Part shown: positions 62,183 through 64,000 of the stretch, in pieces | Layout of the letters: every line of letters starts with the position of its first letter | Numbering within the stretch: position 1 is the first letter of the stretch | Assembly: GCF_055900595.2 (NCBI RefSeq) | Contig: NZ_CM148325.1 | Direction: 5' to 3' (one strand) | DNA: 64,000 bases | Position numbers and translations under genes: made by a program | The notes under the pieces: generated by a model | The model's database searches: none | The model's input: the letters and a program-made list of their open reading frames with translations, nothing else | What the model was told of the DNA's origin: nothing

Positions 62183-62794
62183 TCAGTCTGCAAACTGACG
62201 TGCCACGGCATAGTTGAAAACCGGACCATCGACGCAGACATAGACATCCCCCATGTGGCAGTGACCGCATTTCCCCACTGCACAGGCCATCCGGCGTTCA
62301 TAATCCACCCAGATTTGCTCCGGCTGCAGCCCTTTTTCCAGCAACATCTGTACGGTGAATTTAATCATCACCGGAGGACCAACCACGATCGCCTGCATGG
62401 TGCTGATATCTTCAAATGTCAGTGCTGCCAGATGGTCAGTGACCCGCCCGGTACGGTAACGTTCATCCGCCTCGCCTTCATCCAGGGTCAGAATGAGATT
62501 GTGGTGCCGGTGCCAGTTCGCCATCTCCTGTTTATACAGCACACAGTCCCGGTTTCTGTAACCGAAAACCATGTCAAGCCGGTTGATTTCCTGTGGGTTT
62601 TCGACGAAATAGCGCATTAACCCCTTGACCGGTGCAACGCCGGTACCGCCGGCAATGACCACCAGAGATTTGTGGCGGAAGGCATCGACAGGATAGCCGT
62701 TACCATAGCAGCCACGCAGCCATACCCTGTCGCCCTTGCGTATTACCGTGAAGGAGATCGGTGAGTAACGGCGTTTTTCAAGGTAGTTGTCGCC
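62183..62794 (-). pseudogene. asrB: Anaerobic sulfite reductase subunit B, 5'-truncated by IS3-family insertion
   Basis: C-terminal two-thirds present ([14 protein letters not shown]...[21 protein letters not shown]); reading frame runs upstream to about 62794 and ends at the IS. Confidence 0.75.
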
Positions 62795-62812
62795 TTTTGT
62801 AATAAAATTACG

Positions 62813-63718
62813 TTATGCCGCTTCTTTTTCTGGATTCAGATAAACTGCCTGAATGAGTTCCCAGTCACGCAACTGTTTGCTCCAGCGCTCAGGATGACGT
62901 TTGCGAGCTTCGCGATAAACTTTTTTTCTGGCTTCCAGTATTTGTGCGTCAATTCCGCGATGGCGTTCATCCGGAGTAACATACTTAATACCGCTGTGCT
63001 TGTGTTCCAGGTTGTACCATCGCGTGAACTTGCTTAACCAACTTCTGGCTTCATCTATGGTTCGAAAACCATTCTCTGGCCACCATGGACAATACTTAAT
63101 CGTCCGGAAGAGCGATTCGGAATAAGGGTTATCATTGCTGACCCGGGGACGGGAATAAGAACTTAATACGCCAAGCGCGTACATTTTTGCCAGTAACGTA
63201 CAACTGCGCATTGGTCCTCCGTTATCAGAATGAAGCACGAGATTGCGGGATGAACATTTTTCATTCCATACAGCACGTTGAAGCAGTTCTGCCGCATACT
63301 GCCCAGATTCTTTCGTAAATACTTCGGCAGCAATAATTTTTCGGCTATAAATATCGACGATCATATAGAGATAAAAATGCTGCCCCTTAACCCACGATGG
63401 GATATAACTAATATCCCAGCTCCACACCTGGTTGGGGGCTACAGCTTTGAGTACTTCAGGCCGCTTATATTGGTGTTCACGGGTTCTCCTTGTCAGTTGG
63501 TTAGCTGATTTTAATACGCGATAAAAAGTTGATTCTGACGCGATATAAACCCCTCTGTCGGCAAGAGTCGGAACAATAATATTCGGAGACAATGATGCAA
63601 ACTCCGGAGAATTGCATACATCAAGTATTCTTAATCTTTCTGTTTCTGACAGTTTATTCCCCGGGGTACGCCTTGATGCACCTGGTCTCTGATCTGTATG
63701 AACCACACCACCCTGCAT
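62813..63718 (-). CDS. IS3-family transposase OrfB
   Basis: 301-aa DDE integrase-core ORF. Confidence 0.85.
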   Translation of the reverse strand: MQGGVVHTDQRPGASRRTPGNKLSETERLRILDVCNSPEFASLSPNIIVPTLADRGVYIASESTFYRVLKSANQLTRRTREHQYKRPEVLKAVAPNQVWSWDISYIPSWVKGQHFYLYMIVDIYSRKIIAAEVFTKESGQYAAELLQRAVWNEKCSSRNLVLHSDNGGPMRSCTLLAKMYALGVLSSYSRPRVSNDNPYSESLFRTIKYCPWWPENGFRTIDEARSWLSKFTRWYNLEHKHSGIKYVTPDERHRGIDAQILEARKKVYREARKRHPERWSKQLRDWELIQAVYLNPEKEAA

Positions 63719-63837
63719 CCAACGTTGAAGTGTTCTGACTGAAATACCAATACACTGGCAGGCTTGTGTTTTTCTCGCTCCTGAACTGACAGCCTCGCTG
63801 ACCAGATTAATAATCTTCTGCCGCTCTGGAAGAGGAG

Positions 63838-64000
63838 TCAGCCTTCCTCGCTGTTGTCCCAGAGGGCATTGAACTTTTCCCTTAACATCAAAAGAGCAGC
63901 TGCTTCCGCCAGAGCTTTATCTTTACGGAGAAGTTCTTTTTCCAGTTCCCGTAACTGGGTCTTTGCTTCGCGTAATTCTTTATCAGCACGGCGACTTTCT
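63838..64000 (-). CDS. IS3-family OrfA, C-terminal part (5' end outside window)
   Basis: ...ELREAKTQLRELEKELLRKDKALAEAAALLMLREKFNALWDNSEEG* leucine-zipper end. Confidence 0.7.
   Translation of the reverse strand, partial: ESRRADKELREAKTQLRELEKELLRKDKALAEAAALLMLREKFNALWDNSEEG

Follow-up and report, generated by a model that had tools for sequence, protein, structure and literature searches.

The end of a 64,000-nucleotide stretch of contig NZ_CM148325.1 (assembly GCF_055900595.2), called here the window, carries part of an anaerobic sulfite reductase operon, asrABC, in which asrB is cut by an insertion sequence (IS) of the IS3 family. We consider it very probable (about 0.92) that the operon was knocked out by a simple insertion of this element into asrB. 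A preliminary description of the same DNA had called asrC, asrB and an IS3 transposase, and these three gene calls were borne out by matches to the profiles TIGR02912, TIGR02911 and NF033516, respectively. It had also stated that asrB lacks its 5' end; indeed, the first 265 nucleotides of the gene, corresponding to the first 89 codons, are missing. The asrB fragment matched the TIGR02911 AsrB profile with 311 bits over profile positions 79-261 of 261 only, and the N-terminus of AsrB is therefore absent.

The boundary between asrB and the element could be placed from both sides. When aligned with the intact, uninterrupted asrB gene of Escherichia coli A2 (819 bp, 272 amino acids), the window sequence is collinear up to 62734-62736 and the alignment then breaks down, and the homology to independent copies of the IS begins at 62737, adjoining the end of the asrB homology. 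The preliminary description, which had assigned the element to the right family, placed its start at about 62795, 58 bp off. That position was rejected: the 76 bp from 62737 to 62812, up to the transposase stop codon, are non-coding DNA at the end of the IS and contain its terminal inverted repeat, and the asrB frame stays open by chance through most of them. The frame thus runs past 62736 into IS DNA and meets a stop codon at 62813-62815. An uninterrupted in-frame start of asrB upstream of the junction was looked for, and no start codon was found in frame between this stop and an internal GTG at 62662. This GTG is a possible start of the remaining asrB' frame, for which gene finders called an open reading frame (ORF) of 144-159 amino acids.

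In the reconstructed AsrB protein, the Pfam domains NAD_binding_1 and DHODB_Fe-S_bind cover residues 116-217 and 235-264, respectively. AsrB is homologous to the sulfhydrogenase gamma subunit (9nez_C) and to PyrK (1ep1_B), a relationship by which the IS cut falls within the N-terminal domain; given the architecture known for this family, we take the first ~100 residues to be the flavin adenine dinucleotide (FAD)-binding barrel. The asrB gene of the window is a 3' fragment predicted to lack this barrel. It keeps the NAD-binding and C-terminal iron-sulfur (Fe-S) domains, and has lost its start codon and the upstream part of the operon. An AsrABC operon includes a complete PyrK/FNR-like AsrB, with FAD barrel, NAD-binding domain and C-terminal Fe-S domain; the locus of the window, in which AsrB is incomplete, belongs to this group by descent and is not an intact member of it.

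IS3-family elements encode a two-ORF transposase joined by a -1 frameshift and carrying a DDE/rve domain, have TG...CA ends and generate target duplications of 3-5 bp, those of the IS2 group being of 5 bp. The element next to asrB, whose first bases at 62737 read TGCGTATTACCGTGAAGGAGATCGG..., is oriented like the asr genes. Its termini, TGCGTATTTTCATGAAAGGAGATCAC and TGCGTATTACCGTGAAGGAGATCGG, are of the TG...CA type, only the right one lying in the window. The orfB ORF (62813-63718) matched the NF033516 transpos_IS3 profile with 173 bits (cutoff 160) and contains the Pfam domains rve and rve_3. The portion in the window matches, without a difference, the final 1264 bp of a 1744-bp element present in a public E. 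coli contig (L006), in which orfA (frame 2, nucleotides 131-640) and orfB (frame 1, nucleotides 565-1665) overlap in the -1 frame. Identical copies are labelled 'IS3 family transposase, programmed frameshift' (512 amino acids) in RefSeq, and the full-length transposase is predicted to be the product of a programmed frameshift between orfA and orfB. The element therefore resembles the other members of the family in the overlap of orfA (helix-turn-helix) and orfB (rve), the TG...CA ends, the imperfect inverted repeats and the 5-bp duplication described below, and differs from them in that its 1744 bp exceed the length of most members. It is not restricted to asrB: with window 62700-64000 as query and a minimum coverage of 80%, copies were detected on chromosomes as well as plasmids in 235 of 5426 complete E. 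coli genomes, and those of the E. coli Ec-FL1-1X chromosome and of the CH4797 F-type plasmid are 100% identical to the window from exactly 62737.

The same interrupted allele was found in public E. coli contigs. Twenty loci were fetched, representing 19 distinct contigs, and the asrB-IS junction was present base for base as in the window in 18 distinct E. coli contigs, including the 5.59-Mb complete chromosome CP070393.1; no fetched contig with asr that extends into the IS deviates from it. All contigs with this junction that extend far enough also contain the reciprocal junction between the IS and the 5' part of asrB. The order in these relatives is asrA, asrB nucleotides 1-270, the 1744-bp IS, asrB nucleotides 266-819, asrC and a convergent gene for a serine protease autotransporter of the SPATE type. 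When compared by BLAST with an intact operon, the two flanks of the IS map to overlapping coordinates. The pentanucleotide AGGGC stands on both sides of the IS (L006 7688-7692 and 9437-9441) and only once in uninterrupted alleles, which identifies it as a 5-bp target duplication, as expected of an IS3-family element. It should be noted that other copies of the IS do not display this arrangement: the CH4797 plasmid copy (L003, flanks ~2960-3000 and 4745-4800) has no 5-bp duplication, a target repeat of at least 41 bp, AATCAGAGGTACAAATGGAAAAGCGATCTTTTAAAGAAAAA, being found on both sides, and that of GmM062 lies nested in a group of other IS. The target duplication is therefore assigned from the asrB locus itself. 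The exact junction was not found among the 5426 complete E. coli genomes or among the GTDB species-representative genomes.

As IS copies are a common source of mis-assembly and the window ends inside one, the junction might have been created by joining an IS copy wrongly to asrB. We regard this as next to impossible, the junction being present base for base in 18 independent assemblies from different projects, the complete chromosome among them, with a matching target duplication at the far end of the IS.

Removal in silico of the IS together with one AGGGC copy yielded an in-frame AsrB of 272 amino acids without any other lesion, asrA and asrC being intact. Since excision of the element restores an in-frame asrB, inactivation by IS insertion, as initially proposed, is the right description of the locus. 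Exact look-ups of the reconstructed intact AsrB, of the doubly reverted AsrC and of the AsrC reverted at V216G only (see below) returned no record of any of these proteins. The combination of a clean junction, a target duplication and a restorable frame is the signature that a single simple transposition, fixed in a lineage, would leave.

The window ends before the far side of the element, whose other end would lie at about window-equivalent position 64480, 480 bp past the window end. Over 61101-64000 (61101-62736 plus 1264 bp of IS), the window and L006 show 100% identity, and over 17 kb the window is ~99.9% identical to ten contigs; we infer that its genome probably continues past 64000 as the relatives with the identical junction do. 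On the plus strand, the expected order beyond the window would be the IS end ...TCATGAAAATACGCA, GCCCT, asrB nucleotides 270-1 and asrA (1044 bp). The suggestion that asrA lies beyond the insertion agrees with the relatives, which are 100% identical to the window where compared: an intact asrA (347 amino acids, TIGR02910 560 bits) was found beyond the IS in 15 of the 20 fetched loci, and in those with the identical junction it is set apart from asrC by the IS.

The IS of the window might instead mark a larger rearrangement or deletion, in which case asrA or the 5' part of asrB would not simply follow. The locus is rich in IS and variable. In three contigs (L013, L014 and L020), an IS911-like element with a group II intron reverse transcriptase has left only the last ~450 nucleotides of asrA (asrA region of L013, 5534-6967, for example). 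In L021, of the same SPATE or the same asrB::IS group, asrC is reduced to a 3' stub by a truncation at window-equivalent 61822 (L021 14249), next to an IS256-family transposase fragment. In 18 complete chromosomes, an island 99.5% identical to window 44000-61066 is devoid of asr altogether and carries the remnant of a different IS 54 bp past the SPATE stop codon. An adjacent deletion mediated by the same IS was considered as the origin of the islands without asr (L004) and rejected, the remnant beside the SPATE gene belonging to a different element. Set against this variability, the reciprocal junction and the 5' part of asrB are present in all contigs with the window junction that extend far enough, the start of asrA is present in 15 of the 20 loci, and the 99.9% identity over 17 kb is shared with these very contigs; a larger rearrangement in the window genome is thus improbable.

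The simple insertion would have proceeded as follows. The 1744-bp IS would have entered asrB after nucleotide 270 of 819 (codon 90), in the orientation of the operon, duplicating AGGGC. This would have parted the FAD-binding barrel (the first 89 residues of AsrB, encoded beside asrA and beyond the window) from the NAD-binding and Fe-S domains (residues 90-272), and the 1.7 kb of IS DNA would uncouple asrB'-asrC from the operon promoter upstream of asrA. In the absence of a complete AsrB electron-transfer subunit, no electrons from NADH would reach the siroheme subunit AsrC. In the original genetic work, all three AsrABC subunits are reported to be required. As AsrB is incomplete, electron transfer within AsrABC is expected to fail, and sulfite-dependent production of hydrogen sulfide (H2S) is strongly predicted to be lost.

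One could imagine that the truncated locus still works, read-through from the IS yielding AsrB' (from GTG 62662) and AsrC that act as a reductase, either in the old role or in a new one. The transposase and asr genes point the same way, and transcription of the former would head towards asrB'-asrC; neither the asrC ORF nor its ribosome-binding site is damaged, and gene callers predict the AsrB' ORF mentioned above. This reading is nevertheless very improbable: the fragment lacks the FAD-binding domain needed for electron transfer from NADH to Fe-S, asrA is uncoupled from asrB'-asrC, AsrC itself carries a substitution (G54S) at an invariant site, and relatives go on to lose asrC. A scan of 60900-64000 for consensus promoters and terminators yielded nothing of use, promoter-like sites being less frequent than in shuffled sequence, with no site on the minus strand and a sole match on the plus strand at 63786-63814.

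The downstream gene, asrC, had been described as intact, which holds for its full-length ORF and less well for two of its residues. The range given for the operon, 62183-64000, was inaccurate, as it begins at the asrB stop codon and leaves asrC just outside. The asrC ORF matched the TIGR02912 sulfite_red_C profile with 502 bits (cutoff 324) over all its positions (1-314 of 314). The protein contains the Pfam domains NIR_SIR_ferr, NIR_SIR and Fer4, in agreement with the siroheme-type NIR_SIR architecture with inserted two-cluster ferredoxin motif that characterises AsrC in AsrABC operons, and all its cluster cysteines are retained. The spacing between asrB and asrC is equal in the window and in the intact locus of strain A2. 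In an alignment with 61 homologues (50-99% identity), position 54 is Ser in the window and Gly in 61/61 homologues, and position 216, located within the CxxC-G-xC motif of the second ferredoxin-type cluster, is Val in the window and Gly in 57, Ser in 2, Ala in 2 and Val in none of the homologues. As G54S and G216V both affect conserved glycines and G216V is older than the IS (see below), the IS may not have been the first lesion.

These substitutions raise the possibility that, by the time of the insertion, the operon had already lost its function or the selection on it had slackened, the insertion being a late step of decay and not its cause. V216, which replaces the Gly of the ferredoxin motif, is shared with two metagenome contigs (L027 and L028) that both carry an uninterrupted asrABC with the G54/V216 version of AsrC, and G216V is therefore older than the IS. 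The asrC genes of these contigs differ from that of the window by one nucleotide, which corresponds to G54S, and exact-sequence look-ups showed G54S solely together with the IS. In L027 (asrA 1109-2152) and L028 (305-1348), AsrA carries the substitution C240G, by which a cysteine of the CxxCxxCxxxCP cluster motif is gone; Cys240 is kept in strain A2, in strain GPEC349-628 and in the window lineage. Three radical changes at conserved sites have thus occurred inside a very shallow clade. These data suggest that this family of alleles may have come under weaker selection ahead of the insertion, and the operon of L027 and L028, 'intact' in structure, may be defective as well. On the other side, only 1-3 substitutions are concerned, counts too small for statistics; G216V may or may not impair function; and over the longer divergence from A2 the asr genes look purified, the asrC genes of the window and of A2 differing by 50 nucleotides and 9 amino acids. 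An earlier decay would moreover be compatible with the simple insertion, the two not being exclusive. On balance we hold decay before the insertion to be possible, although unlikely. A more detailed course of events, in which drift came first with the shared G216V, followed by independent hits at invariant sites in each descendant (G54S in AsrC of the window lineage, C240G in AsrA of L027 and L028), then by IS truncations and finally by complete loss, is doubtful.

Several points weigh against the simple knock-out by insertion into asrB. The window stops short of the other end of the IS, and the 5' part of asrB and asrA were seen only in relatives. Three of these relatives (L013, L014 and L020) have lost part of asrA to a second IS3-family element, so that the intactness of asrA in the window genome is deduced from the others. 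G216V, also found in an uninterrupted operon, and G54S indicate that the operon might already have been non-functional and the IS late. The loss of the phenotype and the effect on expression are, in addition, predictions from sequence. The features discussed are collected in Table 1.

Table 1. Features of the asr locus and its surroundings in the window (aa, amino acids; nt, nucleotides; ORF, open reading frame)
Feature	Position	Strand	Remarks
SPATE-type serine protease autotransporter gene	57137-61012	plus	1291 aa; Peptidase_S6 and beta-barrel; convergent to asrC
asrC, anaerobic sulfite reductase subunit C	61162-62172	minus	336-aa full-length ORF; stop codon 61162-61164
asrB-asrC spacer, 10 bp	62173-62182	minus	ribosome-binding site GAGGAAAAAATG on minus strand, read from sequence
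asrB 3' fragment, 554 nt	62183-62736	minus	nt 266-819 of 819-nt gene; residues G90-D272
Target-site duplication, one copy, 5 bp	62732-62736	GCCCT on plus strand, AGGGC in gene orientation	second copy beyond window end
IS3-family element, right inverted repeat (IRR) end first	62737-64000	minus	1264 of 1744 bp in window; cut by window end
Right terminal inverted repeat	62737-62765	minus	TGCGTATTACCGTGAAGGAGATCGGTGAG; imperfect match to left end TGCGTATTTTCATGAAAGGAGATCAC seen in relatives
IS orfB, DDE/rve integrase-core transposase domain	62813-63916	minus	first ATG 63718
IS orfA, C-terminal part, HTH_Tnp_1-type	63838-64000	minus	170 aa when complete; start past window end

The end of the window is a chromosomal accessory island of E. 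coli in which asrABC is convergent to the SPATE autotransporter gene. The neighbourhood of SPATE and asrCBA is conserved, and intact, in E. coli A2, and the exact SPATE protein of the window is present in 71 contigs. The island belongs to a mosaic region: a segment of ~20 kb (about 24000-46000; fdrA, ylbE, cytosine permease and several IS), which matches large E. coli plasmids at 99.4-99.5% identity, here adjoins island DNA of the chromosome. The GC content of the window varies from 0.36 to 0.58 and fits a patchwork of acquired segments. No tRNA or tmRNA genes were found in the 64-kb window, and the integration site of the island lies outside it. A second large autotransporter of 1371 amino acids, annotated Tsh/Hbp in matching records, is encoded at 21616-25731 (plus strand). 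A yebF-like gene at 53862-54215 (plus strand) contains two in-frame stop codons; relatives have two ORFs of 59 and 57 amino acids, and L012 has a single ORF of 117 amino acids.

Within this island, the states of asrABC among relatives (intact operon, point substitutions, IS in asrB, truncated asrA or asrC, and absence) form a graded series, a tidy but unsurprising picture of an accessory pathway eroded by IS. The further truncation of asrA or asrC and the loss of asr in relatives fit the 'pathway decay' invoked in the preliminary description, and its proposal that asr may help to place the host lineage is reasonable as well, asrC matches having been obtained in 65 of the 5426 complete E. coli genomes, 50 of them over most of the length of the gene. 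The asrC gene of the window is 94-97% identical in nucleotide sequence to annotated E. coli asrC genes; no match at 99% or above, nor the exact window allele, was present among the complete E. coli genomes. The exact AsrC protein of the window was found in 319 contigs named E. coli by their sources.

AsrABC of Salmonella is an anaerobic, NADH-linked siroheme sulfite reductase and the classic system for the production of H2S from sulfite, a phenotype visible as black colonies on bismuth sulfite agar. In some Salmonella serovars, the H2S pathways (phs/asr) have been lost by pseudogenisation. The locus described here shares with the Salmonella enterica operon the order asrA-asrB-asrC and the models TIGR02910, TIGR02911 and TIGR02912, and its AsrC shares 89% identity with P0047, the representative of the Salmonella cluster; it differs by its position beside a SPATE gene on an accessory island of E. 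coli, by the splitting of asrB by an IS and by S54 and V216 in AsrC. With the phs/asr pseudogenes of Salmonella it has in common that an anaerobic sulfur-respiration operon is disabled in a lineage. The species and the lesion are different, as an accessory, horizontally distributed E. coli locus has here been hit repeatedly by IS. Closer counterparts are the asr genes of E. coli A2 (NZ_CP028772.1, from platypus) and GPEC349-628 (NZ_CM160080.1, from chicken), which are 95-97% identical in nucleotide sequence and in A2 are likewise convergent, at asrC, to an S6 peptidase gene, and which differ in having an uninterrupted 819-bp asrB. It has been reported that asrABC reduces sulfite to H2S in Salmonella, that H2S production varies among extraintestinal Salmonella serovars and that E. 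coli is normally negative for this trait (PMC12452934). Literature searches on E. coli asr genes, on the disruption of asr by IS and on H2S-positive E. coli returned nothing on this locus; a paper on H2S-positive E. coli deals with thiosulfate and does not mention asr (PMC10414542).

Taken together, this is an ordinary IS knock-out of an accessory operon, involving annotated families only, already present in hundreds of public assemblies and known in kind. It is of little importance beyond annotation and typing, the hint of point-mutational decay before the IS being a mildly interesting angle, and the only one. With asrC rare in E. coli, the allele is usable as a lineage marker, and the asrB::IS junction, CCATACCCTGTCGCCCT followed directly by TGCGTATTACCGTG, is a clean clonal marker of an E. 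coli lineage with hundreds of draft assemblies and 0 of the 5426 complete RefSeq genomes. Strains of this lineage are predicted not to make H2S from sulfite and would yet score as asr-positive in gene-presence surveys, a point that bears on counts of 'sulfidogenesis genes' in metagenomes. If drift did precede the IS, E. coli would repeatedly gain the Salmonella-type pathway from sulfite to H2S and fail to keep it, which would fit a self-poisoning of cytochrome bd respiration by sulfide.

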